A stretch of DNA of 64,000 nt from assembly GCA_031287095.1 (NCBI GenBank), contig JAITTG010000087.1:26023-90022 (forward strand), written 5' to 3'. Below, piece after piece: positions 9,650 to 62,792 of the stretch (the first letter of the stretch is position 1; each line of letters begins with the position of its first letter). The stretch is from Candidatus Parendomicrobium reticulitermitis (lineage in GTDB: Bacteria; Elusimicrobiota; Endomicrobiia; Endomicrobiales; Endomicrobiaceae). The position numbers and the translations under genes were made by a program. The notes under the pieces were generated by a model. The model searched no databases. It saw only the letters and a list, made by a program, of their open reading frames with translations, and had not been told where the DNA came from.

Positions 9650-9675
9650 TTTTATCATTAGTTCAATTTATAATG

Positions 9676-12325: not shown

Positions 12326-12332
12326 AAAATCC

Positions 12333-21426: not shown

Positions 21427-21512
21427 AACTACCTAAAGAAAAAATAGAGGGATATTTTAAAAATCTACTAGGAGAACATCGCGCCAATTAGAATAAAGAC
21501 ATTGCCTTGAAA

Positions 21513-21802
21513 AGGGGGTGAAGGACGCAATGCGGGAGAGGGGACGCTAAAGTCAATCGCTACCCCCAAACCCTGAAAGGATTTAATGTAGTTAATAACC
21601 CCATATTGCCTGCAAGGCTATGCGGGGACAACAGGAGCGCGTCGCGACCCTCACCCGTAGTTGCGCGACACCTTCTCCTTCTCAATAGTCCCTTTTCCTA
21701 TCATATCCTCTCATATGGGAGAGAGACTTTGAAAAGCATGCCTTGAAAAGAGGGAGAGGGTCGCGAAAGCAGGAGAGGAAAAATAAGGAAAAAGGAGATA
21801 TT
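21513..21802 (+). promoter_or_regulatory. composite repeat-built leader of proS (one 82-nt two-hairpin element at 21548-21628 plus a purine-rich proximal module at 21728-21802)
   Basis: Same module order as the pyk leader. Ends in AAAAAGGAGATATTATG. Confidence 0.6.
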
Positions 21803-29904: not shown

Positions 29905-30633
29905 ATGCCCCATTTTTATGTCTTACCTCAAAATACCGTCAATGGCAGTTTTTTTATGGAAGATGAACTCGCCCACTATGTTGCCGCCGTGCGTCGTTTT
30001 AAAGTCGGCGATGAAATAAATCTTTTTGACGGTCTTGGAAAATCTTTTAAGTGCGAAATTACAAGCATTGATAAAAACCGTATCAGCGGCAAAATTTTAT
30101 CTTCTTCGTATCAAAAGTCGTCTTTTGAAATCAATTTATATACCGCTATTCCCAAAGGCGAAAGATTTGAATGGCTTATAGAAAAATGCGCGGAACTCGG
30201 CATTTCAAAAATAATCCCTATAAATACTGCAAGAAGCGTTCTCACAGAAATTTCCGAAAACAAACTTGAAAGATTTAAAAGAATATCTATTTCGGCAAGT
30301 TCTCAATGCGGGCGCGCCGACATTATGGAAATTTGCCGTCCTTTGAATTTTCAAGACGCTTGCAAAAAAACCGTTTCAGACAAAACTATAAATATCTTGC
30401 CTTGGGAAAGTGAAAATAATCTGTCTATATTACAGGTTTTAAACGGAGAAACCTTAAAAGGCGGCAATGCCGCCGCTTTTATTGGACCCGAAGGCGGTTT
30501 TGAAAATTCTGAGATAGATTTTGCAAAAAGACTCGGCTTTCATACGGTAAGCCTTGGCAAAAACATTTTAAGGGTAGAAACCGCCGCCGTCGCTACAGCG
30601 GTATTAGTAATGTCGTCATTGCGCATATCGTAG
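29905..30633 (+). CDS. rsmE: 16S rRNA m3U1498 methyltransferase RsmE
   Basis: Start MPHFYV at 29905; the track ORF from 29689 reads through repeats. PUA-like N-terminus and a IGPEGGF SPOUT motif. The C-terminal SSLRIS is encoded by a repeat. Confidence 0.8.
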   Translation: MPHFYVLPQNTVNGSFFMEDELAHYVAAVRRFKVGDEINLFDGLGKSFKCEITSIDKNRISGKILSSSYQKSSFEINLYTAIPKGERFEWLIEKCAELGISKIIPINTARSVLTEISENKLERFKRISISASSQCGRADIMEICRPLNFQDACKKTVSDKTINILPWESENNLSILQVLNGETLKGGNAAAFIGPEGGFENSEIDFAKRLGFHTVSLGKNILRVETAAVATAVLVMSSLRIS

Positions 30634-30663
30634 GGGCGGGTTTCAAACCCGCCTATCCGCACG
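30630..30663 (+). repeat. GTAG-headed REP palindrome (GTAGGGGCGGGTTTCAAACCCGCC)
   Basis: Begins at the rsmE stop codon. Palindrome GGGCGGGTTT/AAACCCGCC preceded by GTAG. Confidence 0.75.
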
Positions 30664-30776
30664 ATTGACAAAAAACAAAAAGGCAAACGGCAGGCAAATA
30701 ATGATTTGCCGCTACAAACAACATAATATCGGTTGCGCAAGGGGACTAATCTACAACAATCAAGGACAATATCAAT

Positions 30777-31176
30777 AGACCTCTTGTATAATTGATATAC
30801 AAAAAATGTAAGAATATAAGGTTGTTATTGTGGACTTGCTATTCGTTGCGGGTTTGACCTGCGCGGTATAGAAAATATAAGCCATATTCAAATTAAGCGT
30901 CAATCTCGCAACCGCGGTAAAGCCGCGCCTATCGCATCATTCTCGAATGTTGCGCCAGCGCGTCATTCCCGAATGTCTCTGTCGGGAATCCATTTTTGCC
31001 ATTGCCTTTTTTAACTTGGATTCCCGATAACAAATTTCGGGAATGACGAATAAAAGGCTTGCCCTATTTTCAAGCGGGTTGATGACAACGGTAACTCGCT
31101 GTCATTGTGCGCCCCGCGATTTCGCGCAAAATGACAATGTCCGTCTATTTTTATATGTTGGTTGCGCAAGAGGTCT
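30777..31176 (+). mobile_element. non-autonomous TIR element (MITE), ~400 bp, carrying nested hairpin repeats
   Basis: Ends AGACCTCTTGT... and ...GCAAGAGGTCT are inverted repeats. Flanked by AAT (30774-30776) and AAT (31177-31179). Interior contains GTCATTCCCGA hairpins at 30962-30991 and 31018-31047. Confidence 0.7.
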
Positions 31177-31177
31177 A

Positions 31178-32329
31178 ATGAAAAAATTTTATATCTATTC
31201 TTTCGGCTGTAAAGTCAATCGTTATGAAACAGAACTCATATCGCAAAAATTAAAAAGCGGCGATTATGAAATAGCCGATACTCCCCAAGAGGCAGACGCA
31301 ATAATTTTTAATTCTTGTTCTGTCACAAACAATGCCGACAAAGAGTGTTTATATTTAATCAGGAAATCTTTAAAACTACCTCAAAAACCGCAAATCATTC
31401 TCACAGGGTGCCTTGCAATCAATAAATTTCAAGAGTTAAAAAAACTCTTTCCATCTATTGAAGTAATATCAGACAAAAAAACTTTATATTTACAGCCTGA
31501 CAATCAAAGCATAATCTCTTTTGAAAATCATCATCGCGCTTTTATCAAAATCCAAGACGGCTGCAATAGTTTCTGCTCATATTGCATAGTTCCTTATATA
31601 AGAAGCCAAATGTGGAGCAAGCAGCCGGAGGCTGTTCTTTCAGAAATAGAAAATCTCGTCAAAAACGGATACAGCGAAATAGTTTTGACAGGCATACACA
31701 TCGGCAAATACGAAGGCGGTATAGCCCCGCTGATAGAAAAAATAGTCAAAATCCCGTTGGATTTTAGAATCCGCATATCGTCCATAGAAATCAATGAAAT
31801 TAATGACTATCTATTGTCTTTGATGAAAGATTATGAAAACAAAATATGCTCTCACCTACACATACCATTACAATCAGGCAGCGGCGGTATTTTAAAATTG
31901 ATGAACAGACAATACGCAAGCGCCGTCTTTGAAAACAAAATCCAAAAAATTGCCGCTATGTTTAAAAACATAGCCATAACAACAGATATCATAGCTGGTT
32001 TTCCAAGCGAGACAAATGCTCAACACAAAGAAACTTGCGACTTTATAAAAAGAAATCCATTTTCAAGGCTGCACATTTTTAGATATTCAGACAGAAGCGG
32101 CGCAAAAGCCTCAAATTTCAAAAACAAAGTCCCGCCTCAAGAAATCAAAGCCCGTTCCAAAGAACTATTAGGAATAGACAAATCAAAAAGAAAAGACTTT
32201 TTAACGGCAAATACAGGCTCAACAAGAAAAGCAGTCAGCATATCTCCCAATGCATCTCTAACAGACAATTACATAACCATTTCAAACGCCGCATATCAAA
32301 AAGGCATTTTTGATATTAAAATAGAATAG
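31178..32329 (+). CDS. mtaB: radical-SAM methylthiotransferase, MtaB/MiaB-like
   Basis: Start MKKFYIYSFGCKVNRYE at 31178; the track ORF from 31043 reads through the MITE. UPF0004 domain and a CNSFCSYC rSAM cluster. Confidence 0.8.
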   Translation: MKKFYIYSFGCKVNRYETELISQKLKSGDYEIADTPQEADAIIFNSCSVTNNADKECLYLIRKSLKLPQKPQIILTGCLAINKFQELKKLFPSIEVISDKKTLYLQPDNQSIISFENHHRAFIKIQDGCNSFCSYCIVPYIRSQMWSKQPEAVLSEIENLVKNGYSEIVLTGIHIGKYEGGIAPLIEKIVKIPLDFRIRISSIEINEINDYLLSLMKDYENKICSHLHIPLQSGSGGILKLMNRQYASAVFENKIQKIAAMFKNIAITTDIIAGFPSETNAQHKETCDFIKRNPFSRLHIFRYSDRSGAKASNFKNKVPPQEIKARSKELLGIDKSKRKDFLTANTGSTRKAVSISPNASLTDNYITISNAAYQKGIFDIKIE

Positions 32330-32476: not shown

Positions 32477-32640
32477 AATTAGATGATTAAATGCGAGGTT
32501 TCTTAAAAGCGGACAGAAACAAAAACCGGACGAGAAATCGTCTTAAAATTAAATAAAACCATCCACAAATAAGGATAATTGCGGGTAGTTTTTATGTTTT
32601 ATAAGCAAATAGCAAGCAAACAATTGAATATAGATGCAAT

Positions 32641-32799
32641 GGACCTCTTGCATAACTGATATACAAAAAATGTAAGAATATAAGATTGCCGTTGTGCGCT
32701 AACAGAACTCATCAGTGCGAAAACAAGATTGTCATTCTGCGCGAAGCCGTAGAATGACACTATCCCTCTATTTTTATGTGTTGGTTGCGCAAGAGATCT
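32641..32799 (+). mobile_element. non-autonomous TIR element (MITE), minimal 159-bp copy
   Basis: GGACCTCTTGC...GCAAGAGATCT termini. AAT at 32638-32640 and at 32800-32802. Internal GTCATTCTGCG/CGTAGAATGAC hairpin. Confidence 0.7.
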
Positions 32800-32806
32800 A
32801 ATGGAT

Positions 32807-32858
32807 AAAAAACCGCGCAGGCTAAAAGCGTAATGCTTTTGGTTTGCGCGGTTTTTTT
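32807..32858 (+). terminator. compound stem-loop with flanking A/T runs
   Basis: AAAAACCGCGCA...TGCGCGGTTTTTTT with an inner AAAAGC-GTAAT-GCTTTT hairpin. Confidence 0.5.
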
Positions 32859-33029: not shown

Positions 33030-34355
33030 TTGAAAGACTTCTTTCCAACGCCCGCGCCTTTAAGGTCTGTCAAAAGCAACAGAACGCTAATTCCAAAGCC
33101 TGAACTTGATTTATACAGAGGCGAAGCCGACGATATAGCGAATATATCTAACCGCATAAAAATACTTGTAAAAGCAATCAAGGCGAACGGGTTTTATCCC
33201 GCAAGGTTTAAAGATTCAATAACGAAACTTGAAAACACCGACGACACGGAGTTGATAGCCGTAGATTTTGCCGACGATATTAGAGATTTAGGCGGCATAG
33301 ACAAGATGTTTCATTACAAGCCGATAGCGCAGTTTGAGCAAGTGGCAAAAGGATTATACGCTCAACAACAAAACTTAATCCAAGAGATATACGAGATAAC
33401 AGGGATAAGCGACATAATGCGCAACATATCCAAAGAAGAGACAGCCACAGCAACAAGACAAAAAGGCAAGTTTGGAAGTTTAAGATTACAACAAAGACAA
33501 TCGGCGTTAAACAATTACATCAAATCAATCTATACCATAGCGACAGAGTTAGTTTGCGAGTTATTTGACATAGACGCGTTAAAAGAAATCACATCAATGG
33601 CATTGCCTACAAACCAAGAACTTGCAGACTTTCAAACAAAACAGCAAACCGTTCAATCGCAATTTCAATCGGCAATGCAAGCCTATCAACAACAAATGCA
33701 ACAAGCGCAAGCGCAAGGACGGCAGTTGCAAATACAGGCTCCGCAACAACCGCAGGTTGCGCCGGAAGTATTAAAGTATTTTTCAAATCCCACATGGGAG
33801 AAGTTAAAGGAATACATAGAAGACAGCCGTTTACGCTCTTATTTGCTTGATGTAGAGACAAATTACAGCGTATGGGAGACAGATTTAGAAACGCAAAAAT
33901 CGCGCACAGAGTTATTTACAACAATTACGGACACCATACAAAAAGCGTCGCCGATAATAGCGGCAACGCCTGAACTTGCGGACATTTATATGAAGTTGAT
34001 TAGTTTCACCATAGACGGCTTTAAAGTATCAAGAAGCCTAAAGAACGGCATAGAGGACGCGTTGTTAGAGATAGTAGAGAACATAAAAAAGAAACAAGCG
34101 CAGCCTCCGCAACAACAGCCTGACGCTCAAATGCTGCTTGCGCAAGCGGAGATGAAAAAAGCGGAAGCGGAAGGCATAGTAGCAAAAGCAAGAATGCAGG
34201 AAGCTCAAGTAAAAGCAATGCAAGCGCAGGCGGAACTGCAACTTGAGCAAGCCAAAGTAAATATAGACACGCAAGCCAAACAAGCCGACATTCAACTTAA
34301 AGCGCAAAAGAATCAGATAGAGGCGGCAAAGCCGCTTTTTCCACAAACGATATAG
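33030..34355 (+). CDS. phage portal-like protein, probably N-terminally truncated
   Basis: TTG-initiated frame. Has ITGISDIMRN, a YLLDVETNYSV core and a long Q/A/K-rich C-terminal coiled coil of the kind seen in portal barrels. Gene order (portal, post-portal protein, scaffold) supports the call. Confidence 0.5.
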   Translation: MKDFFPTPAPLRSVKSNRTLIPKPELDLYRGEADDIANISNRIKILVKAIKANGFYPARFKDSITKLENTDDTELIAVDFADDIRDLGGIDKMFHYKPIAQFEQVAKGLYAQQQNLIQEIYEITGISDIMRNISKEETATATRQKGKFGSLRLQQRQSALNNYIKSIYTIATELVCELFDIDALKEITSMALPTNQELADFQTKQQTVQSQFQSAMQAYQQQMQQAQAQGRQLQIQAPQQPQVAPEVLKYFSNPTWEKLKEYIEDSRLRSYLLDVETNYSVWETDLETQKSRTELFTTITDTIQKASPIIAATPELADIYMKLISFTIDGFKVSRSLKNGIEDALLEIVENIKKKQAQPPQQQPDAQMLLAQAEMKKAEAEGIVAKARMQEAQVKAMQAQAELQLEQAKVNIDTQAKQADIQLKAQKNQIEAAKPLFPQTI

Positions 34356-34366
34356 GGTTATAAAAG

Positions 34367-35419
34367 ATGGATTACAAAGACATCACCCAACCCATACAAG
34401 CGGGCTTTAACAATTCAGATATAGGCATAGCGTTTAACCGCTCAATGCCGCGACCTGAAGAATACGAAAGATTAAGTCCGTTTAAAAAAGCGATAGCGGC
34501 AGGGGCAAGCATGGTAAGCGACAGTCCCGTATATATGCTTGGCGGGTTATTGGGCGCAGTAGCGGGCGGAGCGGGCGCGCCGATAGGAGCATTAGGATTA
34601 CAAAGAGGATATAGGCAATACTTAAACGAATTATACGGCAATGATGAAAACAGAAATACTGATATTATTTCAAGAGGCGCAAGGGTAGGCAGGGAGAGTT
34701 TATACGGAGCGGGCGAGGGTTTAGCGACGCAAAAAGCGGCTCAACTTTTAGGCAGCTTTGCTCCGCTTGTTTTAAACAAAATCGTAAATAAAAGAGTTCC
34801 GACGGTGAATGTAACTGACGATATGCTTATAAAACTTGAAAACAATTTACCTAATGGAATAAATAATCCTTTTTATAAATTCGTGCAAGACAATAGAAAA
34901 TGGATAGAGATGAAGCCTCAAATGGAATCAAATGCAGAAAGATATATCAACAATAAATTTGGAGTGAACAATTTAGACACTGCGGTAAAGGTAAAGTCGC
35001 CGATAGAGGATATAAACATAACGCCTGAATATTTGCAAAAACTTGTAAATCACCCGAGGGATATTCACAGAAACGAATTTGTTCCAGAGGCTTTGGCAAC
35101 TTTGGAAAGACCAAATCAGATTGTCAAAGATGCGCAAGGAAGGAATAATTATTTTAAATTGTTTTATGATGGAAAGTTTAAGCCTCATTTAAGCGGCGTT
35201 TCGCAGAAAGCAGATGAAACATTTTTCAATACAAGTTTTCCATTACAAGGCAGAAATATCACAAAAAGAATAGCGGGCGATACTATTTACCAAAAAAAAG
35301 ACGCCCCGCGGTGGGTAACACCGCGTGCGTCGACCCAATATATAGTAAATAATTCAAAAAGAATCAACGAGACAATGCGGAAATTGCTGGGCAGTTTTTA
35401 CAAGAAATATAAAAAGTAA
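34367..35419 (+). CDS. post-portal virion protein: Gly-rich membrane-like segment plus AT-rich C-terminal domain resembling phage PBECR-type nuclease modules
   Basis: Occupies the MuF/gp7 position. GGLLGAVAGGAGAPIGALG segment. C-terminal ...ITPEYLQKLVNHPRDIHRNEFVPEALATLERPNQIVKD... Composition switches from GC-rich to AT-rich near 34790. Confidence 0.45.
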   Translation: MDYKDITQPIQAGFNNSDIGIAFNRSMPRPEEYERLSPFKKAIAAGASMVSDSPVYMLGGLLGAVAGGAGAPIGALGLQRGYRQYLNELYGNDENRNTDIISRGARVGRESLYGAGEGLATQKAAQLLGSFAPLVLNKIVNKRVPTVNVTDDMLIKLENNLPNGINNPFYKFVQDNRKWIEMKPQMESNAERYINNKFGVNNLDTAVKVKSPIEDINITPEYLQKLVNHPRDIHRNEFVPEALATLERPNQIVKDAQGRNNYFKLFYDGKFKPHLSGVSQKADETFFNTSFPLQGRNITKRIAGDTIYQKKDAPRWVTPRASTQYIVNNSKRINETMRKLLGSFYKKYKK

Positions 35420-35488
35420 TCTGTGAGGTTCCACTCCACAAAAGATTTACAGGCAGTCAAACAAACAAAAGGAAAACAGGAGGAAGCA

Positions 35489-36601
35489 ATGGAAAACGAA
35501 GAAATTAACCCGACGGTAGAAGACGGAGCAATCCCTCAGGAGACGCAATCGGAACAAACGCAAGTAGAGGGGGACGCAGGCAAACCGACTGAGGTCAACC
35601 CATCCAAGAACGCTTTACAACTTGCCCTTGAAAAAGCGCAGAAGGAAATTGACGATAAAGACGCAGAGGAACAAAAGGCAAAACAAAAAGGAGCAGACGG
35701 CAAACAAGGCAAGGCGCAACCCAAGAAAGACGGCGAAAACAAAGACGATGACAAAACAAAAACGGACGACGGCAAAACTCCAAAGGTTCAAGACAAAGGC
35801 GGCAAGCAAGAGTTTGCGCCGCAAGAGCATTGGACTGACGAGCAGAAGGAGTTTTTTAACGGATTAGAACCGCAAAATCAAAAGAAAGTTTTAGATATGT
35901 ATAAGGGCATTCAAAAGGTTTACGAGAAAAAGACGCTTGACTTATCCAAACAGCAAAAGAGTTATGAGCAATTCAACAAAGCGTTTGAACCTTACGAGGA
36001 CATTTTCAAAAAGCAAAACATAGACAAAGGCGCATATATCAAGCAGATGATAGATTTAGACAGGCAGGCGACTGCAAATCCTGTGGAGTTTGCGATAAAG
36101 TTTATGCAGTCAAGGGGATTAAATTTAGACCACATAATTGCGGGCATACAACAGATGTCAAGCCCCGAGTATCAGCACATAGCGCCGTTAAAACAGAAAT
36201 TAGAAAGTTTGCAAAAGCAAATAGAAAGCGAGACCTCAAACAAAGAGTCTGTCAAGTTTGAGGGATTGATAGAAGAGTTTAAAAACGAGACGGACGAGTC
36301 GGGAAATTTGGCGCATCCATATTTTGACGAAGTGCAGGAACAAATGGCGCAAATCTCTACTGCTACTGGGGAGACAGACCTTGCCAAGATATACGAGCAA
36401 GCGTTATGGACTACGCCGGAAGTAAGAGCAAAGTTGATAGAAGCGGAAAAGCAAAAAGTAGCGCAGGCAAAACAAAAGGAAGACCAAGCAAAAAAGACGC
36501 AAGCGGCGGCGGGCTTGCACATCAAGAATTCAGCGGCTCCAGCCAATCCTCCCAAAAAGCAAGGATTGAGGAGCATAATAGAAGAACTTGATGGAGAATA
36601 A
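35489..36601 (+). CDS. phage scaffolding-like protein
   Basis: ATG at 35489 behind AGGAGG. Highly charged K/E/D/Q-rich, helix-prone, 370 aa, located after the portal module. Confidence 0.45.
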   Translation: MENEEINPTVEDGAIPQETQSEQTQVEGDAGKPTEVNPSKNALQLALEKAQKEIDDKDAEEQKAKQKGADGKQGKAQPKKDGENKDDDKTKTDDGKTPKVQDKGGKQEFAPQEHWTDEQKEFFNGLEPQNQKKVLDMYKGIQKVYEKKTLDLSKQQKSYEQFNKAFEPYEDIFKKQNIDKGAYIKQMIDLDRQATANPVEFAIKFMQSRGLNLDHIIAGIQQMSSPEYQHIAPLKQKLESLQKQIESETSNKESVKFEGLIEEFKNETDESGNLAHPYFDEVQEQMAQISTATGETDLAKIYEQALWTTPEVRAKLIEAEKQKVAQAKQKEDQAKKTQAAAGLHIKNSAAPANPPKKQGLRSIIEELDGE

Positions 36602-36618
36602 ACCGTCGTAAAGAAAAC

Positions 36619-36948
36619 TAAAGTCAATCGCCACAATCAAACCCTGAAAGGGTTTAATGAAGTTAATAACCCCGTATTGCCTGCAAGGCTATGCGGGGGC
36701 GATAAAGTCAATCGCAACAATCAAACACTGAAAGGGTTTAATGCAGTTAATAACCCCGTATTGCCACAGGCTATGCGGGGACGATAAAGTCAATCGCCAC
36801 AACCAAACCCTGAAAGGGTTTAATGCAGTTAATAACCCCGTATTGCCGCAGGCTATGCGGGGACGATAAAGTCAATCGCCGCACCCAAACCCTGAAAGGG
36901 TTTAATGTAGTTAATAACCCCGTATTGCCTGCAAAGGCTATGCGGGGA
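36619..36948 (+). repeat. four tandem copies of the 82-nt two-hairpin leader element
   Basis: Copies at 36619-36702, 36703-36784, 36785-36866 and 36867-36948. Stems conserved, linker and loop variable. Ends 15 nt before the rSAM ATG. Confidence 0.9.
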
Positions 36949-36963
36949 CACAAGGAAACCAAA

Positions 36964-38031
36964 ATGCAAAACTTTTTAAGGAACAAAATCAAAACCATTT
37001 TTATAAGTCTTGGCGGCGGGTGTAATTTGTCATGCTCTTATTGCTCGCAAAAAAAAGAACACATAGAAAACATAGCCGTCGTCAACAAAGACATATATAG
37101 ATTTATCAAAGAGCATGCGTCTTATCACAGCAAATCCGACAAATTAAAAGTCTTATTTTACGGCGGCGAACCGCTTTTATATTTTGACAAAATCAAAACC
37201 ATTGCCAAAAAAATCAAAAGCAAAAAAATACATTTCACAATAATCACCAACGGCAAACTATTAAATCAGGAAATAGTAAAGTTTTTAAATAAATATAAAT
37301 TCGGCGTTCAAGTGTCTTGGGACGGGCGGGCAAGTTTAGAAAGCAGAGGCTTTGACGCCGTGAAAGAAAAAAAGGATTTATTGTTTAAACTAAACTCAAT
37401 GTCGTTCTCGTCTATTATCACGGACAAATTGAGATTAAAAGATTTAGTTGAGGATATTGAAACATTCAATACAGAGTATGCCAAACGCAATAACGGGCGT
37501 ATTGCTAATGCAATAGTTGACGCTGTTAGAGACAGAAATAATGCCGCAGGACGCATAGATTACAATGTATTAGAGCAAGACATGAGAGACTTGATTAAAA
37601 GCGTATTTGTAGAAGGTAAAAACGAGTCGTTTAAATATTGGTTTAATTTAGAGTTTAAAAATTTAAGAAACTTTATAACCGTTTATAAAGACAAACAAAG
37701 CGTCCTGTCTCCTTGCCCTGAAGGTTTGCAGCATATCAGCATAAATTTGAAAGGAGACATTTTGCATTGCCATAATGCAAGCGGCATAAACGGGACTATA
37801 TACAGCGATTATTATGAGTATTTAAGCAAGGTATTGAGTAAAACCAAGTCCTGTCAAGAAGGCGCTTTCTGCGAAGTATATTCATTATGTAAAGGCGGGT
37901 GCAAACTTGCCAATGCGCTCGGCGAAAATACGGACATATATTGCCAATCGCGCAAAGCGTTGTTAAAACCGATTTTAGAGTTTGTATCTTATTTACATTA
38001 TGCGCTAACAAAGGAGGTTGTAAATGTTTGA
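36964..38031 (+). CDS. radical SAM enzyme with C-terminal SPASM-like Cys cluster domain
   Basis: GCNLSCSYC (CX3CX2C), a GGEPLL motif, and C-terminal CPEGLQHISINLKGDILHC...CQEGAFCEVYSLCKGGC...C. Start at 36964; the track ORF from 36823 reads through the repeat array. Confidence 0.8.
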   Translation: MQNFLRNKIKTIFISLGGGCNLSCSYCSQKKEHIENIAVVNKDIYRFIKEHASYHSKSDKLKVLFYGGEPLLYFDKIKTIAKKIKSKKIHFTIITNGKLLNQEIVKFLNKYKFGVQVSWDGRASLESRGFDAVKEKKDLLFKLNSMSFSSIITDKLRLKDLVEDIETFNTEYAKRNNGRIANAIVDAVRDRNNAAGRIDYNVLEQDMRDLIKSVFVEGKNESFKYWFNLEFKNLRNFITVYKDKQSVLSPCPEGLQHISINLKGDILHCHNASGINGTIYSDYYEYLSKVLSKTKSCQEGAFCEVYSLCKGGCKLANALGENTDIYCQSRKALLKPILEFVSYLHYALTKEVVNV

Positions 38032-38827
38032 AATTAGAAATAATACGCAAACCCAAAATTCAAAAGATGAGACAAAATTAAGTTTAAATTTAAAAGGACA
38101 AAAACTCTTTATCAATGTAGAAAGAGAGGACGCTCAATTTAACGAAGTATTAAATTTAAAATCTTATTCTATGTATAAAGTATTTCAGACAGATAATGAA
38201 CCTATATACTTTGTAGATGTCAACAGAATAACTTCGCTATTTAGACTGCCCAGAAAAGATTATAAGCAATTGCCAAATGACTCGGGCTATATCTTTTCCA
38301 TTAAAACGGGAATGATTTCAGACAGCGTCCGCGATATTCTAATAGACAATAAAGACATAAAAAAAGAAAACATCAAAATAATATCGGATATGCCTTACAA
38401 TCAATCGGATTTAGACTTTAAACTAAAACTCGCCATGCAAGACAAAACGCTTCTTGATTACTTTTCTCTATCTGCAAACGGGCAGGAATACAAAGCCGAC
38501 AGCGCAGGCAATAATATAGACGGCGATTTTGACAAACCGATAATCCCGCTTTATACCGATGGCAAAAGCAATTTACCCTTTGCAGAGTTTGTCATTCAAA
38601 AATATCTGCGCCGTTTTGAAGCGCCTTTAAACAGAGACATAGACAATGACGAAGTAACCGTTGAAAGTTCGGCTGGTTTAGTAAATACGCGGCGCGCATA
38701 TATGCAAAACGGCATTACAAAATTCAGGCTTTATCCTTTCGGTTATGAGGGCAAAATCAAAATCAAAATCGGACGGCGTTGGTATGAAAACTTAAACGAA
38801 TACAATTTAATTTTAGGCGGCGCATAA
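38024..38827 (+). CDS. hypothetical protein, translationally coupled to the rSAM gene
   Basis: 8-nt overlap with the rSAM stop. 267 aa, no Cys, very AT-rich like the rSAM gene. No family recognised. Confidence 0.5.
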   Translation: MFEIRNNTQTQNSKDETKLSLNLKGQKLFINVEREDAQFNEVLNLKSYSMYKVFQTDNEPIYFVDVNRITSLFRLPRKDYKQLPNDSGYIFSIKTGMISDSVRDILIDNKDIKKENIKIISDMPYNQSDLDFKLKLAMQDKTLLDYFSLSANGQEYKADSAGNNIDGDFDKPIIPLYTDGKSNLPFAEFVIQKYLRRFEAPLNRDIDNDEVTVESSAGLVNTRRAYMQNGITKFRLYPFGYEGKIKIKIGRRWYENLNEYNLILGGA

Positions 38828-38834
38828 AATAATG

Positions 38835-38862
38835 GCAGGGGCGAACCTATATGTTCGCCCGC
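38835..38862 (+). repeat. REP palindrome GCAGGGGCGAAC-CTATAT-GTTCGCCC
   Basis: Stem variant of the GGGGCAGAC...GTCTGCCCC family; both arms changed together. Confidence 0.7.
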
Positions 38863-38886
38863 AAAACAAACAACAGGAGGCAACAA

Positions 38887-39678
38887 ATGAACGGACAATT
38901 TACCAATCCCGCGCCGCAAATATACGGCGACGGAATTTTTGCAAACTATGTTAGGAACTCAAAAAACGCAAGCGGCAACGCTTTAGCCGCCGCATTACAA
39001 GCGGACGCCGACAAAAAGAAATCAATGCAAAATCCCGGCGGTAAAAGTTATGCGACAAGCAAACTTGAAGAAGCGGGCAAAATGGGCGCGGGCTATGTAA
39101 GCGGTTTAGCAAATGTATTAGCGGGCGTTTCGCAAGGGCATGACGCAAACAAACAAAAAGAATACGACGCGTATAAAAACGAGAAATTAGCAAACGCCAT
39201 GGCTACAGGCGACGCTTCAAGCGCGGTAGAGTTTGACGCGGACTTGGCAAAAACTTTAGCCGAAAACAATCTCAAAAAACAACAAGCCGCCGAGAAAATG
39301 GCTTTTGATAAAGAAATGAATCAAAGCAATCAAGATTATGATTATCAAAAAGTATTAGGCAGTTACGGACAGCAAAGCAAAGAAAACGCCGCTCAAAGAA
39401 AACTCCAATGGGACATAGCAAACCTAAAAGACGCAAGCGCAGGCGGCGGCGATGACAAGACAATAGCGGGAATGCCCGAGAAAGCCTTTTATGAGTTATA
39501 CAACAAATTAAGTCCGAAAGACCAAGCGCAAGTATTGCAAAAACCCGACCTTATACACGCAAGCAAAAACAGAGGCTTTTTTGGTTCAAAACTCGGCGCA
39601 GGCAAACATAGCGCGGTATTGGGCAAAGGCGCGCCTCAAACAGCGCAAAATCCCTACGCGTCAAAATATGGCTTTTAA
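38887..39678 (+). CDS. low-complexity A/K/Q/G-rich phage protein (internal virion protein-like)
   Basis: ATG at 38887 behind AGGAGG. GC-rich like the phage backbone. The last 11 codons are duplicated downstream of the REP at 39680. Confidence 0.45.
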   Translation: MNGQFTNPAPQIYGDGIFANYVRNSKNASGNALAAALQADADKKKSMQNPGGKSYATSKLEEAGKMGAGYVSGLANVLAGVSQGHDANKQKEYDAYKNEKLANAMATGDASSAVEFDADLAKTLAENNLKKQQAAEKMAFDKEMNQSNQDYDYQKVLGSYGQQSKENAAQRKLQWDIANLKDASAGGGDDKTIAGMPEKAFYELYNKLSPKDQAQVLQKPDLIHASKNRGFFGSKLGAGKHSAVLGKGAPQTAQNPYASKYGF

Positions 39679-39679
39679 T

Positions 39680-39706
39680 GTAGGGGCGAACCCATGTGTT
39701 CACCCG
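39680..39706 (+). repeat. GTAG-headed REP palindrome inserted at a gene junction
   Basis: GTAGGGGCGAAC-CCATGT-GTTCACCCG, flanked by diverged ~33-nt direct repeats (39646-39678 and 39710-39741). Confidence 0.75.
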
Positions 39707-39753
39707 TCTCAAAATCCCTATGCGGGAAATATAGTTTTTAACAAGAGGATTAT

Positions 39754-42207
39754 ATGAATAAAAATTTAGCGCAGATTAGAAACAATGTAGGCATAATGCT
39801 ATCCAAAGGCGCGCCGGAAGAGGATATAGACGGCTATTTAGCCAGCGTAGGCTCAAACGCCGACGAAATCAAAAACTATAAAGACCCGGGCATAGTATCT
39901 GCCGGCTTGTTTGCAAATGCCGCCGAAGGCGCGACAGTAGGTCTTGCCGATGTGTTATACGGCGCAGGCGGCGCGTCATTAAAGAAGTTCAAAGACGCCG
40001 TCAGCGGCAACGATAACAGTCCCAAAATAACAAGGGGGCTTTCAGGTTTTACTCTTATAAACGACGGCGACAATAAATTGAGGCAAGCCACAAAAGAGGA
40101 AGACGACGCAAACAAAGCGTCATGGAGCAACCTATTTAACGAATACAGAAAAGACTTTAACGATACCAAAAATCAATACAATGATTATCACGGCGCAATC
40201 GGCACGGTGGCAGATGTGGCGGGCAGTTTTGCTCCTATCATATTAACAGGCGGCGCGGGAGCATTAGTCAAAGGCGGCGCAACGGCTGGCAAAGCGGGTT
40301 TAGGTCAATTAGCAAAACAAGGATTTAAAACAGGCGGCAAATGGGGCGGCGCTTACGGCGCGGGCAATGGTTTAACAGAAGGGGACGAATTGTCAATCGG
40401 CAACGCTTTATTAGGCGGCGCAACAGGTTTAGGTATGGGAGCGGCAGGCGGGGCATTATTGCCTGTATTGGGTTCTTTTGCGGGCAAAGCGATAAAACCT
40501 TTTACAAAGCAAGGCAAGTTTGACAGATTCGCAAAAAAAATCGGGATGGATAAAATTGACGAGTCAATAGAAAACAATAGACCGCTTATAGAGAATGCCG
40601 ATGAGAATATAATGTCAATGGCGGAAGGAGCAGGTCTTAATAATGTCGGCGCCCGTCAAATACTGCATGACTATGCCAATATAAGAAAAGGACAGCAAGT
40701 AGGCATAATTGACGACCAAATAAATAATACTTTTGGCGCAAAAGGCGCAGACGCAGTGACAAGAGAGATTGAGGAAGCGGGTAAAAGAGAGTATCAAATG
40801 CTTTATGATAAGGCACTAAACCAGCCTCACGGCGTTATACCTAATTTAGAACCAACCTTAAAAAACCCGCGCATTGCCAAAGCGTTAAAAGTAGTCCGCA
40901 AAGAATATCCCGAATACGACCAATTTCCAGACACGCATATACAAGTGCTTGACTTAGTTAAACAACAATTAGACGACGATATAGCCAAAGCGGTGAATTT
41001 TAATGAAAAGTTAAAAGCAGGCTTTTTACTTGAAGCAAAAGATAATTTAGTAGCGAAACTTGATAAAGCGTCGCCAATATACAAAGAGGCAAGAGGTTCA
41101 TTTGCCGGCATGAAAGATTTGCAATCTTTTGTTGATAAAGGCAGAAACTACAACAAAATGACAAGAGAAGAGATAGAGGAATTATCTAAAACTTTAACGC
41201 CGGAAAACAAAAAAGCCTTTAATGCCGGCATAAGAGAAACGCTTATAAAGAACCTTGACGACGGGGCAAAGAGCGAGGGTGTAAATGTTGCAAGGCGGGT
41301 ATTTGACGACAGCACTTTACGCAAACTTGAAGGATTGGGCATAGACGATTTTCAACAATTAAAAGACATCATGCTTAAAGAAAGGCAAACAATGCAAAAC
41401 ATCAATCGCTTTGCAAGCGGCAGTCAAACAGCGGAACGAGAAGCCGATAAACAATTTAGGCAAGCCTTGCCTGTAAAAATGATTTTTAACCCAATCCGCA
41501 CAGCTAAGAAACTTACAGAAAAAGCATATTTAAAAGCATTAGGTTTAGGCGATGAAGAGATTGCAAGATATTTGACAAATACAGGCGCGCTTGCGAAAGC
41601 AAGGAGCGGAGGAACATCAAGCCGTGTAAATATCAATCCAGTATTTACAAAAGGCTATTCTGCCACGCAACTCAAAGATAAGGCAATAAAAAATGAAATA
41701 CGAGATAAATATGCCGATTGGTATAAGAATAATTTACAAGGTGAGAAATATCAAAAAGAAGGGTTAGAAAGCGATATAGATTTTAATAGATTTGGTAAGA
41801 ACGAACCTCAAAGCAATAGCGCTTATATAAATAAGTTGGACTTTGGAAAGTATGCAAAAGAATTGATTGATACAGGTAAATTAAGTGGTCAAAAGAAACT
41901 GAAACACCCAAGTGAGCGATATAAGTATTTTAAGAATATTTATACTCCCGTAGAATATAACGGAAAGAAAATGAAATCAAGCATATTTTTAGGTAAAAAT
42001 AAATTTGATTCAGGCTATACCTATCACGATTTTTCGCCTATGGATTATAGTGTCATTGGGGATTATCTTTATAACAGACCAGCAGATAATAAACTCAATG
42101 ATATAACAAAGTTACTTGGAAGTTTTGCAGGAATAAAACAAGATTTAGTAAGTAATCCTATCAGAAAACTGCTTGGAAGTTATGAATATTTATTAAGGAA
42201 AAAATAA
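39754..42207 (+). CDS. large multi-domain virion protein (polyvalent/ejection-protein-like) with an AT-rich C-terminal module
   Basis: 817 aa. Gly-rich segment at aa 150-245. Composition switches to AT-rich near 41640. LGSFA-type motif recurs four times. Confidence 0.45.
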   Translation: MNKNLAQIRNNVGIMLSKGAPEEDIDGYLASVGSNADEIKNYKDPGIVSAGLFANAAEGATVGLADVLYGAGGASLKKFKDAVSGNDNSPKITRGLSGFTLINDGDNKLRQATKEEDDANKASWSNLFNEYRKDFNDTKNQYNDYHGAIGTVADVAGSFAPIILTGGAGALVKGGATAGKAGLGQLAKQGFKTGGKWGGAYGAGNGLTEGDELSIGNALLGGATGLGMGAAGGALLPVLGSFAGKAIKPFTKQGKFDRFAKKIGMDKIDESIENNRPLIENADENIMSMAEGAGLNNVGARQILHDYANIRKGQQVGIIDDQINNTFGAKGADAVTREIEEAGKREYQMLYDKALNQPHGVIPNLEPTLKNPRIAKALKVVRKEYPEYDQFPDTHIQVLDLVKQQLDDDIAKAVNFNEKLKAGFLLEAKDNLVAKLDKASPIYKEARGSFAGMKDLQSFVDKGRNYNKMTREEIEELSKTLTPENKKAFNAGIRETLIKNLDDGAKSEGVNVARRVFDDSTLRKLEGLGIDDFQQLKDIMLKERQTMQNINRFASGSQTAEREADKQFRQALPVKMIFNPIRTAKKLTEKAYLKALGLGDEEIARYLTNTGALAKARSGGTSSRVNINPVFTKGYSATQLKDKAIKNEIRDKYADWYKNNLQGEKYQKEGLESDIDFNRFGKNEPQSNSAYINKLDFGKYAKELIDTGKLSGQKKLKHPSERYKYFKNIYTPVEYNGKKMKSSIFLGKNKFDSGYTYHDFSPMDYSVIGDYLYNRPADNKLNDITKLLGSFAGIKQDLVSNPIRKLLGSYEYLLRKK

Positions 42208-49716: not shown

Positions 49717-49796
49717 CACATAAAGAATTGCCGTAAAATATAGCGAGCGCTTCATGACAAACCTGAATTCACATTCCCAAATGCCGCGCCTGCTGC

Positions 49797-49826
49797 GTCA
49801 TTCCCGAATGTCTCTGTCGGGAATCC
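49797..49826 (+). repeat. hairpin repeat GTCATTCCCGA-ATGTCTCTG-TCGGGAATCC
   Basis: Identical to 30962-30991 and nearly identical to 14868-14895 inside larC. Degenerate copies at 19399 and 59990-60060. Confidence 0.8.
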
Positions 49827-58963: not shown

Positions 58964-59848
58964 ATGCTCGACATTTCAAAATCATTAGATAATTTCATTT
59001 CCTATATAATAGTAGAAAAAGGCTTGTCAAAAAATACCGCGCTTGCTTACAAATCAGATTTATTAAAATTTATTGATTTTTCAACTAAAAAAGGCGTCCA
59101 AATTGAGAGTCTTTCTCATCAAGACATAACAGACTTTTTGTGGGATATGAAAGTCAAAAAATTTAAGCCGCGCTCGATTTATAGAATGACTGAATCCATC
59201 AGACAATTTTATAAATTCCTGCACATAGAAGATTTTATAGATAATAATCCAACCGAATTTCTCGCCATACCAAAAATTCCCGAAGATTTGCCAAAACTTT
59301 TGACATTAGAAGAAATGAAACTTTTATTAAATTCTGTCAATAAAAGCGATATCAGAAGCGTCAGAAACCGCGCTATGCTTGAACTGCTTTATGCCTGCGG
59401 AATAAGAGTGTCTGAACTCGTCAATTTAAAATTCTCAAATATAAATCTTGACGATAATTTTATACAAGTAATCGGCAAGGGATCAAAAGAGAGGATAGTT
59501 CCTTTTGGAGAGACGGCTAAAAAATATCTAAATTTATATTTAAAAATGAGAAGACCTTATTCAACTGTGAGCGAATTTATATTTATTTCGCGGCTTGGCA
59601 AAAAAATGTCAAGAATTGCATTTTGGCAGCAATTAAAACAAATAGCGCTGCAAGCGGGCATTTATAAGAATATCACTCCTCACACTTTTAGGCATTCTTT
59701 TGCGAGTCATTTTTTATCGGAAGGGGCTGATATAAGATTTGTTCAAGAGATGTTAGGACACAGCTCCATAGCCACAACGCAAATTTACACACACATAAGC
59801 AATAGCGAAATCCGACAAAAACACAAACAATATCACCCGAGAGGGTAA
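58964..59848 (+). CDS. xerD: site-specific tyrosine recombinase XerD-like
   Basis: SAM-like N-domain. Catalytic region RNRAMLELLYACGIRVSEL...HTFRHSFASHFL...LGHSSIATTQIYTH. Confidence 0.85.
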   Translation: MLDISKSLDNFISYIIVEKGLSKNTALAYKSDLLKFIDFSTKKGVQIESLSHQDITDFLWDMKVKKFKPRSIYRMTESIRQFYKFLHIEDFIDNNPTEFLAIPKIPEDLPKLLTLEEMKLLLNSVNKSDIRSVRNRAMLELLYACGIRVSELVNLKFSNINLDDNFIQVIGKGSKERIVPFGETAKKYLNLYLKMRRPYSTVSEFIFISRLGKKMSRIAFWQQLKQIALQAGIYKNITPHTFRHSFASHFLSEGADIRFVQEMLGHSSIATTQIYTHISNSEIRQKHKQYHPRG

Positions 59849-59916
59849 GGAAACGCGAATTAATTTATTGAATGCCTTTAGCCATGCGCAATGACGAGTT
59901 AACTATATTTGATAAT

Positions 59917-60128
59917 AGCCCTCTTGCATAACTGGTATACAAAGAATGTAAGAATATATCTATTGTCATTGCCAAAAATCGCCCACAATGCGTCATTTCC
60001 GAAAGTTGTTATCGGAAATCCAAGTTAAAAACAACGGCAAGTGGATTCCCGACAAAGACGCTCGGGAACGGCGGAGGCGCACAATGACAATGTCCGTTTA
60101 TTTTATATGTCGGTTGCGCAAGAAGTCT
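59917..60128 (+). mobile_element. non-autonomous TIR element (MITE), 212-bp copy with nested hairpin repeats
   Basis: AGCCCTCTTGC...GCAAGAAGTCT termini. AAT at 59914-59916 and at 60129-60131. Confidence 0.7.
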
Positions 60129-60153
60129 AATTAGCGTTTCCATAAGTTTTGCG

Positions 60154-60198: not shown

Positions 60199-60234
60199 AT
60201 ATTTCATATAAAAATTTAAGAAAATGCCGCCAAA

Positions 60235-60306
60235 CTGCCCGACCAGGACTCGAACCTGGACTATCTTGCTCCAGAGGCAAGCGTGTTACCATTACACTAT
60301 CGGGCA
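60235..60306 (-). tRNA. tRNA-Gln (anticodon CUG)
   Basis: Minus-strand sequence TGCCCGATAGTGTAATGGTAACACGCTTGCCTCTGGAGCAAGATAGTCCAGGTTCGAGTCCTGGTCGGGCAG. U1-A72 pair and G73 discriminator as in bacterial tRNA-Gln. Anticodon loop CT-CTG-GA. Confidence 0.85.
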
Positions 60307-60316
60307 ATTATTTCTC

Positions 60317-60649
60317 TCATTTCTCTTCTATTTTCTCTTGATGTTTTGACTCTTCTATATCCTCAGCCTCTTTGGGTTTTTCCGCTTGCGGTTTTGCCGC
60401 TTCGTCGGCGTAATTTATTTGCAGATTTGAGATTGTCGAAGATAATGTCTCTTCTTCTTTTTTTGTTAGATTGCCTTTTGTTTTTTCTTTTAACATCAAC
60501 AGAGTATCTATTGTGAATTTTGCGCCGTCTAAGTCTCTGCTAATTTTACCGTCAACTGGACTTGGAACTTTGCCGAGTTGATACCAACAAGTTGAGGCAA
60601 ACATTGTGATTAAATTAAATAAATTTAGATTAAAATCTTTTTCTTCCAT
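60317..60649 (-). CDS. DUF1844-like small protein
   Basis: Start MEEKDFNLN at 60649; the MRGHKEIQ extension in the track comes from the repeat. LGKVPSPVDGKISRDLDGAKFTIDTLLMLKEKTKGNLT fits the DUF1844 pattern. Confidence 0.6.
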   Translation of the reverse strand: MEEKDFNLNLFNLITMFASTCWYQLGKVPSPVDGKISRDLDGAKFTIDTLLMLKEKTKGNLTKKEEETLSSTISNLQINYADEAAKPQAEKPKEAEDIEESKHQEKIEEK

Positions 60650-60665
60650 TTGTATCTCCTTGTGT

Positions 60666-60907
60666 CCCCGCATAGCCTTGCGGGCAATATCGGGTTATTA
60701 ACGACATTAAACCCTTTCAGGGTTTGGGTGGCGATCGGTCTATCATCCCCGCATAGCCTGCGGCAATACGGGGTTATTAACAACATTGAACCCTTTCAGT
60801 GTTTATGGGTGGTAAATTGGTCTATCATCCCCGCATAGCCTGCGGCAATGCGGGGTTATCAACGACATTAAACCCTTTCAGTGTTTGGTTGTGACGATTG
60901 ATTTTAG
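60666..60907 (-). repeat. three tandem copies of the 82-nt two-hairpin leader element
   Basis: Copies at 60666-60746, 60747-60828 and 60829-60907. Co-oriented with DUF1844. The last copy ends 16 nt before the ATG. Confidence 0.9.
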
Positions 60908-61118
60908 CACTGATGCTATGTGATGCTATGTGTTACGCTGTCAACTGCAGGCTTGACCCATGTCTTGTGCCGTCGTCGTGCGCAATCCCCGCAATGACAA
61001 ACCTAATCTTGCGACAACAAACCTAAACCCGCACAAAATCCAAAGATTGCGATGACAAACCTAATCCCGTAATTGACGGCGTTGCAAGTCTGTAATTGAC
61101 GATAAAAACATATCTTTC

Positions 61119-62600
61119 TTATTTAAAAAATCTGTCTTTCGCTATTTTTATGCGGCGGTTTGTTTCATTTTTGCCGAGCAATTCCATTAAATGAAATAGG
61201 CTTGGTCCTTGCGTCCTGCCGCTCACCGCCACTCTTATGGGATGAAAAACTTGTCCTGTTTTTAAACCTTTTTGCTCGGCTAAATCTCTTGCAAATTGTT
61301 CAAGCGCAGACGCTGAAAAATCGTTTTGATTTTCAAGTTTTTGGGAGCATTCATTTATAACTATTTTTGCGCTGTCTTTGCTTTTGTCTGACAAAAATAC
61401 TTTCTGAACCGCCTCTTCTTTATAATCCACTTCTTTAACAAAGAAAAAATCCACAAGATTTGGAATTTCGCTAAGCGTTTTGATTTTATCGTGTTCTAAT
61501 TCCATCGCTTTCTTTAAGACTTCTTTATCCCAACCGTCTATTATCTTTTCATTATTCGTATATTTGATCCAATCCATAAAAAGAGAATATGCTTCATCTA
61601 TGGATTTTGAACGGATTTTTTCGCCGTTTAGCCACAATAGTTTTGCGGGGTCAAAAGTTGAAGAACTTCCGCCGCAGCCTTCAAGAGAAAACTTCTCTTC
61701 CAACTCTTTCATAGTAAAAATCTGCTGACTATCGCTTGTTGACCAACCCAAAAGAGCGAGATAATTTAGCAAAGCCTCCGCCAAATACCCCTCTTTTTGA
61801 TAATCTAAAACGGAAGTATGCCCGTGTCTTTTAGAAAGTCTTGCGCCGTCTGAACCCATAATCATAGCCGTGTGCGCAAATTTTGGCAAATCCCAACCAA
61901 ATGCTTGATATAAATGCAATTGGCGGGGCGTATTTGAAACATGGTCGTCGCCTCTTATTATATGAGTCATATCCATAAGATGGTCGTCTATGACGCAGGC
62001 AAAATTATAAGTTGGAACGCCGTTTGCTTTTGCTATTACAAAATCGTCAAGCAAAGCATTGTCAAATTCAACTTTGCCCCTTATAATATCGTCCAAAACC
62101 ATTTTGCCGTCTTTGGGCATTCTAAAACGAATTACAGGCTTCCTGCCTTGTTTTTCCAACTCTTGTCTTTGACCAATGGCGAGATTTGAGCAATGACCGT
62201 CATATTTTGGGGGCTTCTTTTGCAATTGAGCGAGTTTTCTCATCTGCTCAACTTCTTCGGGAGCGCAATAGCAAGGATAAGCCAAATTCTTGTCCAATAA
62301 TTCGTCAATATATTTTTGATATATTCCGAGATTTTTTCTTTTCATCTGATAATATGGAGCGTATTTTTCAGGCTCATTGCCGGGACCTTCGCCCCAATCA
62401 AGTTTTAACCATTTTAAAGCGTCAATAATCACTTGCGTGGAAGCATCCGTTGAGCGCGCTTCGTCGGTATCTTCTATTCTCAAAACAAAAGTTCCGCCTT
62501 GATTCTTTGCAAAAAGATAATTAAACAGCGCGGTGCGAACCCCGCCTATATGCAAATCCCCGGTAGGAGACGGCGCAAATCGAACTCTGACATTATTCAT
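61119..62600 (-). CDS. gltX: glutamyl-tRNA synthetase
   Basis: [16 protein letters not shown] (HIGH) and RLSKRHG (KMSKS-like). 493 aa. Confidence 0.95.
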
Positions 62601-62613: not shown

Positions 62614-62745
62614 TCCCCGCGTATAGTCTTGCAGACAATACGGAGTTATTAACGACATTAACCTCTTTCGGAATTTAATTGCAGCGATTGATTTTAGTAT
62701 CCCCGCAGCCTTATTAACAGCCCTAAACTCTTTTAGGATTTAGCG
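62614..62745 (-). repeat. one full and one internally deleted copy of the leader element upstream of gltX
   Basis: Full copy at about 62614-62697 and a degenerate copy at 62699-62745, followed by a REP palindrome at 62748-62775. Confidence 0.75.
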
Positions 62746-62792
62746 TTGCGGGCAGACACATGGGTCTGCCCCTACAAATCAATCAGCGTCTT

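Follow-up and report, generated by a model that had tools for sequence, protein, structure and literature searches.

The DNA analyzed here is a stretch of 64,000 nucleotides (nt) from Candidatus Parendomicrobium reticulitermitis (contig JAITTG010000087.1, positions 26,023 to 90,022), which we call the window and by whose own numbering all coordinates are given. Our subject is a structured repeat unit of about 82 nt, three copies of which stand in tandem between two minus-strand genes, gltX (61119-62600) and a DUF1844 gene (60317-60649). The first encodes a glutamate-tRNA ligase, as given by synteny and by a product identical to MDR3049576.1; the second is identified by Pfam PF08899 (E 2.5e-23) and encodes 110 amino acids when counted from its true start, which was placed by ortholog alignment. 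The two genes are kept as an adjacent pair throughout Endomicrobia (the window and loci L004-L017). In the window, tRNA-Gln(CUG), the substrate of the non-discriminating glutamyl-tRNA synthetase pathway, directly follows the pair on the same strand, 10 nt past the DUF1844 stop (60234-60307; ARAGORN, and 68.7 bits against Rfam RF00005), and the gene upstream of gltX is a TRAP DctM gene in place of the hisG of relatives.

The gltX-DUF1844 spacer is 467 nt long in the window and consists of the three 82-nt units together with tandem repeats of 10 nt and 20 nt. From distal to terminal with respect to DUF1844, the units lie on the minus strand at 60827-60906, 60745-60824 and 60664-60743, with covariance-model scores of 95.3, 83.1 and 81.2 bits, and the internal one has a degenerate 5′ module. 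The same tract is picked up by Tandem Repeats Finder as an array of period 82 (60665-60886; 2.7 copies, 88% matches). The initial annotation of this DNA, made from the sequence alone, had placed three tandem copies before DUF1844 and tRNA-Gln, and this description agrees with the array, the three covariance-model units and the position of the tRNA. The remainder of the spacer (60907-61118, minus strand) contains other short tandem repeats detected by Tandem Repeats Finder, namely a perfect 10-nt repeat TGATGCTATG in 2.2 copies (60911-60932) and a degenerate 20-nt repeat ACAAACCTAATCTTGCGACA in 3.6 copies (60997-61066), so that the spacer as a whole is a patchwork of repeat types. Neither a sigma-70-like promoter nor an intrinsic terminator is predicted in the spacer, although the promoter consensus of this phylum may differ. 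Because none is predicted between gltX and DUF1844, co-transcription of the array is the simplest assumption.

A nhmmer profile made from the array that precedes a radical-SAM gene (36619-36949), and a covariance model made later, identify ten full copies and one partial copy of the unit at five loci in the window. The units score 77-108 bits with the covariance model, and all of the remaining window scores 20 bits or less. The radical-SAM gene has four copies on the plus strand (36619-36700, 36703-36782, 36785-36864 and 36867-36949; 97-108 bits), which Tandem Repeats Finder reports as a period-82 array of 4.0 copies with 92% matches. Solo units are found before gltX itself (62615-62696, minus strand, 86.1 bits), where the copy is divergent and carries compensatory changes in both hairpins, before proS (21548-21629, plus strand, 101.3 bits), and before the pyruvate kinase gene (pyk; 13499-13578, minus strand, 77.3 bits), where the most divergent copy is located. 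The partial copy is a cut-down, degenerate one just 5′ of the gltX unit (~62711-62748, minus strand; nhmmer E 0.005, and 12.6 bits with the covariance model over 62699-62760). A weak covariance-model match at 9616-9709 was considered as a further copy and rejected as an ordinary intrinsic terminator. At all five loci, and at the single locus known from a second genome (L001), every copy occupies a spacer between co-directional genes and is in the sense orientation. The genes that follow the units, for pyruvate kinase, ProS, a radical-SAM/SPASM-type protein, the DUF1844 protein and GltX, have no common function according to Pfam. A T-box or other riboswitch, which the presence of two aminoacyl-tRNA synthetase genes brought to mind, was rejected on account of the lack of any Rfam match and the absence of the unit from orthologous gltX and DUF1844 leaders.

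Each unit comprises, in order, a 5′ single-stranded part, hairpin 1, an invariant linker (AAUG..GUUAAUAA) and hairpin 2, and the corresponding sequence is TAAAGTCAATCGCCACAACC / AAACCCT-GAA-AGGGTTT / AATGnnGTTAATAA / CCCCGTAT-T-GCC(T)-GCA-(A)GGC-T-ATGCGGGG / AC(GA). Across 11 copies (ten from the window and one from L001), standard pairing holds in 90% of pair cells, and compensatory double changes have occurred at three pairs in the most divergent copies, those of gltX and pyk. The observed covariation score was reached by none of 500 shuffles. One pair is a U-G wobble in 8 of the 11 copies, and the best-conserved columns of the alignment are those of the single-stranded, AT-rich linker. Hairpin 2 exists in two forms: a short loop (GCC-GCA-GGC) is present in internal units and in the first unit of the DUF1844 array, and a longer loop (GCCUGCAAGGC; GCCCGCAAGGC in the terminal DUF1844 copy) is present in terminal units, solo units and the first unit of the radical-SAM array. 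The third radical-SAM unit and the first DUF1844 unit, which belong to different arrays, are 90% identical, as against 80% for the first and second DUF1844 units, which are neighbors. This likeness of internal units between arrays suggests that multi-unit blocks may have been copied or converted between loci. The unit has no terminal inverted repeats (TIRs; scores 4-6, null mean 5), and neither target-site duplications nor direct repeats in its flanks were found, the scores being inside the null range. Rfam 15, at gathering and at permissive thresholds, contains no family for it; tRNAs and chance matches are all that these scans yielded, and the best match to the unit (E 0.7) is to unrelated miRNA/snoRNA models.

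The terminal copies stand in a close relationship to the translation start of the gene that follows. Before the radical-SAM gene, DUF1844 and gltX, hairpin 2 stops 2-3 nt 5′ of AAGGAG or AAGGAA, which is then followed by the start codon. The three junctions are GGGGACACAAGGAAACCAAAATG (36944-36966, plus strand, with AAGGAA at 36952-36957 and the true ATG at 36964), GGGGACACAAGGAGATACAAATG (60669-60647, minus strand) and GGGGAACAAGGAGCCGTTATG (62618-62598, minus strand, with AAGGAG at 62611-62606 and ATG at 62600-62598). From the sequence and the N-termini of orthologs, the DUF1844 initiation region (60647-60663, minus strand) is read as AC, AAGGAG (60661-60656), ATACAA and ATG (60649-60647). 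The pattern GGGGAMNNNRGGAR occurs three times in the window against 0.06 expected, and the junctions of the radical-SAM gene and DUF1844 are near-identical all the way to the ATG. Of six termini, five have the sequence GGGGA(C)(A)ACA(A)GGAG/A, and the bases past AAGGAG vary by locus (ATA, ACC, CCG and AAA). The proS and pyk units are followed by GGAGCGC... without a start codon, and then by a second leader element, E2, that carries the real Shine-Dalgarno (SD) sequence of these genes. Because both loci share one composite, their GGAG tails count as one event. The degree to which the SD is sequestered in predicted leader folds differs among loci; accessibility thus varies from one to the next, and there is no consistent sequestration switch.

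The near-identity of the junctions at three unrelated genes had been recognized in the initial annotation, which quoted all three sequences exactly and concluded that the repeat delivers the ribosome-binding site (RBS). The repeat does abut the RBS at these genes, but comparison with a close relative indicates that delivery is not required. In the closest available genome, a metagenome-assembled genome (MAG) of Endomicrobium sp. (L004), GltX is 92% identical at the amino acid level, and gltX and DUF1844 are 88.9% and 82% identical at the nucleotide level. The covariance model finds no unit 5′ of gltX or DUF1844 in this genome, the gltX-DUF1844 spacer is 105 nt, and the leaders read ...TTTAAAAAGGAGAAATTATATG (gltX) and ...AAAAAAGGAGATATTATATG (DUF1844). 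AAGGAG is at the same place in both of these element-free orthologs, and the point at which the alignment between the window and L004 picks up again is exactly AAGGAG in the case of gltX and AAGGAGATA in that of DUF1844. Since homology restarts at exactly this point, the SD need not come from the repeat.

More distant relatives point to a short ancestral spacer. At about 70-75% GltX identity, the gap between gltX and DUF1844 is 1-153 nt, including in the cultured Endomicrobium proavitum, with the exception of L005-L007, in which a Zn-ribbon gene lies in a gap of ~750 nt. The covariance model detects no unit in ~140 kb of non-redundant sequence from the more distant Endomicrobia, and the element is not at the orthologous gltX or DUF1844 leaders of any relative examined. 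By parsimony, the operon spacer would have been short in the ancestor and would have grown recently to the 467 nt of the window. The radical-SAM gene has no close ortholog (40% identity at best), and the loci of its distant homologs have no element. A pattern scan of 185,579 species genomes from GTDB returned one other match, in the Endomicrobium MAG L001 (Hs463_bin78, JAISKX01). This copy lies 3′ of a ThiF/MoeB-rhodanese gene and ends GGGGAACAAGGAGAAATA at the end of its contig, which terminates 40 nt past the match; such a break inside the repeat is what a multicopy sequence would be expected to cause. JGI metagenomes yielded no true match and two GC-rich, coding chance matches, viral contigs, plasmids and phages gave no match to the unit, and full-text literature searches gave no account of Endomicrobium repeats that match it. 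To judge from these searches, the unit represents a repeat family not described before, with two carrier genomes, both of them uncultured termite-gut relatives of Endomicrobium.

The unit also supplies in-frame start codons that extend annotated proteins. The open reading frame (ORF) at 60317-60673 (minus strand) begins at the hairpin-2 ATG of the terminal unit (60673-60671) and places MRGHKEIQ before MEEKD..., which adds 8 amino acids to a protein whose orthologs begin at MEEKD or its equivalent. The ORF at 36823-38031 carries 47 extra residues, which include MRGHKE, and the deposited annotation of the radical-SAM protein with the same limits (MDR3049555.1) is consequently 402 amino acids long and would be 355 without them; homologs align from residue 48 of the 402-residue version. 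The initial annotation had dismissed these in-repeat extensions as spurious, and the short starts of the orthologs or homologs of both proteins confirm this. It had further traced both MRGHKE extensions to the ATG in hairpin 2, which is correct at 60673 but not at 36823, where the linker ATG of the third unit opens the ORF. Start-codon mis-annotation is a practical consequence of the repeat.

A translated function of the repeat itself, as leader peptides, as MIRU-style coupling ORFs or as a precursor peptide for the neighboring radical-SAM enzyme, is in our judgment hardly credible. An AAAGGG stands before each linker ATG, and the 42-codon frame that begins there crosses the following unit, giving ORFs that begin MQLITPYC(H/R)RLCGDD... 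at 36741-36869, from 36823 onward and at 60625-60786; a Cys-rich ORF of 49 amino acids precedes the radical-SAM homolog in L015, and small ORFs that overlap flanking genes are a feature of MIRUs (PMC3184786). However, a period of 82 nt is not divisible by 3, the reading frame changes between the long and short loop forms, the ORF is not preserved in solo copies, and the same unit precedes unrelated housekeeping genes. The repeat-encoded peptides have no match in a set of 5.8 billion proteins, and homologs of both downstream proteins do not have the extensions.

The SELEX consensus of the RNA-binding regulator CsrA has the core ACARGGA. On the basis of this resemblance, the initial annotation had speculated that the ACAAGGA beside hairpin 2 is a CsrA-type site and that the element marks a post-transcriptional regulon, bound by CsrA or another global RNA-binding protein, in which copy number tunes the strength. 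The motif does fit the core and overlaps the SD at three genes, but most of what we find speaks against a site of this kind. ACAAGGA is not enriched in the window (9 observed, 5.6 expected), and two genes without the element, at 43554 and 48343, have it as their SD context as well. The GGA is unpaired and lies 3′ of hairpin 2 rather than in a hairpin loop, with AAGGA present solely in the SD itself. In the alignment, internal units have no A(N)GGA, and extra copies would therefore add no CsrA sites. The search for csrA that the initial annotation had proposed, made by tblastn with the CsrA sequences of E. coli and B. subtilis as approximate queries against the window and ~200 kb of related loci, gave nothing better than E 0.18. 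Pfam scans of 49 window ORFs revealed no CsrA, the window and the related loci likewise gave neither FliW nor Hfq, and literature searches returned no paper that links Elusimicrobia and CsrA. Finally, the element is absent from the orthologous leaders in every relative examined, and for this reason a young, spreading repeat fits better than a conserved regulatory signal. A CsrA-type site is thus unlikely, and a regulon built on it, or on another global RNA-binding protein, very unlikely.

We interpret the element, with a probability of roughly 0.6, as a non-coding intergenic repeat of the REP2/MIRU/BOX kind that is confined to its lineage and has recently spread in one termite-gut sublineage related to Endomicrobium. 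It is most likely a young, selfish or near-neutral structured repeat. Under this interpretation the repeat would enter, in sense, spacers whose flanking genes run the same way and so would be carried on their mRNAs, assuming co-transcription. The arrays of one to four units probably result from the copying of blocks of several units, or gene conversion, from locus to locus, and they could grow and shrink by unequal recombination or slippage. At the DUF1844 locus, the repeat would have widened a short operon spacer, and the AAGGAG past the last unit would be either the native SD or a recombination junction at the SD. The predicted outcome is a stable hairpin directly 5′ of the RBS, 2-3 nt from the SD. 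By analogy with REP, BOX and MIRU elements (PMC3184786; PMC4213456), effects on expression, such as mRNA stabilization, processing, or insulation and discoordinate expression of cistrons, would be a plausible by-product.

A number of observations weigh against this interpretation. Its basis is ~64 kb of host sequence plus a single copy in another genome (L001). No mobilizing enzyme, TIR or target duplication was found in the window, whose sole recombinase is a XerD-like integrase (58964-59848); Pfam scans of the window detect no RAYT, Y1, IS200-type or other transposase. Two of the five loci are aminoacyl-tRNA synthetase genes, by chance or not. At each of the six unit 3′ ends, the proS/pyk composite included, (A/G)GGAG or AAGGAA begins within 2-4 nt, so that the SD-like tail could be integral to the element. 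Moreover, the spacers between SD and ATG differ between the window and L004 (CCGTT and AAATTAT for gltX; ATACAA and ATATTAT for DUF1844), and the whole initiation region could have been replaced. The highest conservation lies in the single-stranded linker, and compensatory change has kept the hairpins in old copies; read from the alignment, both hint at some selected function or recognition site. Lastly, the fold energies of the sense and antisense strands are near equal, at -23.5 and -23.1 kcal/mol, and because both strands fold about equally well, energy does not separate an RNA-level from a DNA-level role; the sense orientation and the wobble pair are what favor the former.

The observations on the SD would be explained by an expression cassette like Neisseria REP2, in which the 3′ module carries the SD and perhaps a promoter at the unit junction, native initiation regions have been replaced and copy number modulates output, which is the proposal of the initial annotation without CsrA. 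REP2 offers a precedent (PMC3184786), and the near-identity of the radical-SAM and DUF1844 junctions up to the ATG, the sequence shared by five of six termini, the GGAG tail that the proS and pyk units have with no start codon behind it, and SD-ATG spacers unlike those of the closest relative are all consistent with it. A marginal promoter-like sequence, TTGCCA-N18-TAAAGT, spans a unit junction at 36761-36790. Nevertheless, this match is 9/12, occurs at one junction only and is the one found where 1.1 are expected, and there is none in the DUF1844 array, with the same proviso regarding the promoter consensus of the phylum. AAGGAG is at the same position in element-free orthologs and homology restarts there, the bases past it are locus-specific, at two of the five loci an element of 130-170 nt stands between the unit and the real SD, and the genes that bear the unit are functionally incoherent. 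We therefore regard such a cassette as possible but doubtful.

The conserved linker and the folding of both strands bear on a different proposal, in which the element is a DNA-level array of binding sites for a nucleoid protein, recombinase, transposase or other DNA-binding protein that reads the invariant TTTAATGnnGTTAATAAC, and the hairpins are cruciform or single-stranded DNA features as in REP/RAYT or IS200/IS605 ends. Spread without TIRs or target duplications would fit single-strand or site-specific mechanisms. We consider this improbable given that the window has a XerD-like integrase only, with no gene for a RAYT, IS200-type or other transposase, and that the strict sense orientation and the U-G wobbles favor constraint at the RNA level. 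Also unlikely is a mobile leader cassette consisting of a two-hairpin RNA with a single-stranded UUUAAUGnnGUUAAUAAC platform and its own SD tail, which would have overwritten the initiation regions of housekeeping genes (two aminoacyl-tRNA synthetases, DUF1844-tRNA-Gln and pyruvate kinase) and, through a putative RNA-binding factor, would form a young regulon with strength set by copy number.

A recently spread intergenic repeat, as we favor, is of practical and conceptual use, even though by itself it opens no long-standing question. It puts wrong start codons in public records, the radical-SAM protein being the example (402 instead of 355 amino acids), and it probably breaks assemblies, as at the end of the L001 contig. 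It provides a clean case of a young repeat that enters a conserved operon spacer right at the RBS, and it may serve as a marker for strain typing. If effects on expression are found, the loci would constitute a natural experiment on leader structure and copy number versus translation in a lineage under host adaptation.

The surrounding genome, with a G+C content of 38% in the window, is repeat-rich for its apparent size class. The E2 element (130-170 nt) is located between the 82-nt unit and the SD of proS (21631-21802, plus strand) and pyk (13368-13498, minus strand); together with a partial copy at 21502-21542 (plus strand), these are its only copies in the window. It contains a long inverted repeat, GTCGCGAC..CTCTCC / GGGAGAG..GTCGCGA, and has no Rfam match at the gathering score. 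In the region behind it (11711-13367, minus strand), the pyruvate kinase ORF has the barrel domain only (344 amino acids) and overlaps a Pfam-less ORF of 223 amino acids, and the gene may be split or frameshifted. GC-rich, REP-like palindromes of two types, GGGCGGGTTTCAAACCCGCCC and GGGGCAGACCCATGTGTCTGCCC, are found in intergenic regions, the second also in L004; the sites are those of family D3 (2840-2877, 30627-30664 and six more), 62752-62775, ~54200, and 1664-1690 in L004. Further dispersed families of 30-60 nt, some in both orientations, are D2 (14845-14895, 30939-30989 and 49774-49824), D6 (30773-30832, 32637-32696 and 59913-59972) and D9/D10/I10 (9738-9793, 19267-19320, 31124-31186, 32748-32809 and 60101-60140). 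The region at ~33030-42207, inside which the four-unit array lies, holds Pfam-less genes, the orphan radical-SAM gene and an 817-residue protein with an LPD3 “large polyvalent protein” domain, has raised AT skew, and is possibly an integrated mobile element. The Cys-rich ORF of L015 (4130-4279; MSAGTNALTDILNSLIAAAHTHSFLTTQCTSEVTYTNCRNCNCGCCEGL) is directly 5′ of a radical-SAM/SPASM-type gene (40% identical) and resembles a precursor of ribosomally synthesized and post-translationally modified peptides; the four-unit array stands at the matching position in the window, where no such peptide gene is seen. GC skew tracks gene orientation only and is uninformative on the direction of replication.

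Among known systems, REP sequences are single imperfect palindromes of ~35 nt tied to RAYT transposases, and miniature inverted-repeat transposable elements (MITEs) such as Correia, RUP and ERIC have TIRs and target duplications. The unit resembles REPs, their composite BIMEs, and MITEs in being small, structured, multicopy intergenic DNA, and such elements can affect mRNA stability and expression. It differs from REP/BIME in its length of 82 nt, its two different hairpins and conserved linker, and the absence of a Y1/RAYT transposase from the window, and it differs from MITEs in having neither TIRs nor a target-site duplication. Leaders regulated by CsrA typically contain two or more A(N)GGA motifs in hairpin loops, one of which overlaps the SD. 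The unit shares with CsrA/RsmA leaders a GGA motif that overlaps the SD beside a hairpin, but its GGA is outside the loop in an ordinary SD context, each leader has one site whatever the copy number, and no csrA is seen in the window. Pneumococcal BOX elements are modular, with a tandem middle module, distinct end modules and a stable predicted RNA structure, and are transcribed with their neighbors (PMC3184786). The difference between internal units, with the short loop, and most first, terminal and solo units, with the long loop, is reminiscent of this organization; in BOX, however, there are three modules (A, B and C) and a proposed mobilizing insertion sequence, whereas here the whole unit is repeated and no insertion-sequence partner is known.

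In structure and position, the nearest precedent is MIRU (Supply 1997), a family of 40-100 bp repeats, often in tandem, that occupy operon spacers in the direction of the genes, are transcribed with the operon and have filled and empty homologous sites (PMC3184786; PMC4213456). The unit likewise forms tracts of one to four 82-nt copies in co-directional spacers, in the same orientation, and has filled sites in the window and empty ones in L004 and the distant relatives; the senX3-regX3 spacer is a parallel to that between gltX and DUF1844. Two further traits of MIRUs, small ORFs overlapping the stop and start codons on either side and tetranucleotide direct repeats at filled sites, are not seen here. 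No continuous chain of ORFs runs from the upstream stop codon through the units, and both the period of 82 nt and the loop variants shift the frames. In addition, MIRU spacers have measured promoter activity whereas the present unit is known from sequence, and the two are unrelated in sequence and in host phylum.

For the function envisaged by the initial annotation, the nearest precedent is Neisseria REP2 (Parkhill 2000; Morelle 2003), a 120-150 bp element confined to one genus, which has no TIR, contains two stem-loops together with a promoter, an RBS and an ATG, lies directly 5′ of ORFs, inflates annotated ORFs and marks genes co-induced on host-cell contact (PMC3184786). The unit shares the absence of TIRs, the two stem-loops, the location immediately 5′ of ORFs with an RBS adjoining its 3′ end, the inflation of ORFs and the restriction to one lineage. 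It is unlike REP2, with which it was compared by description only, in being 82 nt long and often in tandem (REP2 is not reported to be so), in that no convincing promoter was found, and in having an SD that may be native. The unit thus corresponds to no named family; it has features in common with both REP2 and MIRU but lacks some that define each of them, and its place is among the small structured intergenic repeats.

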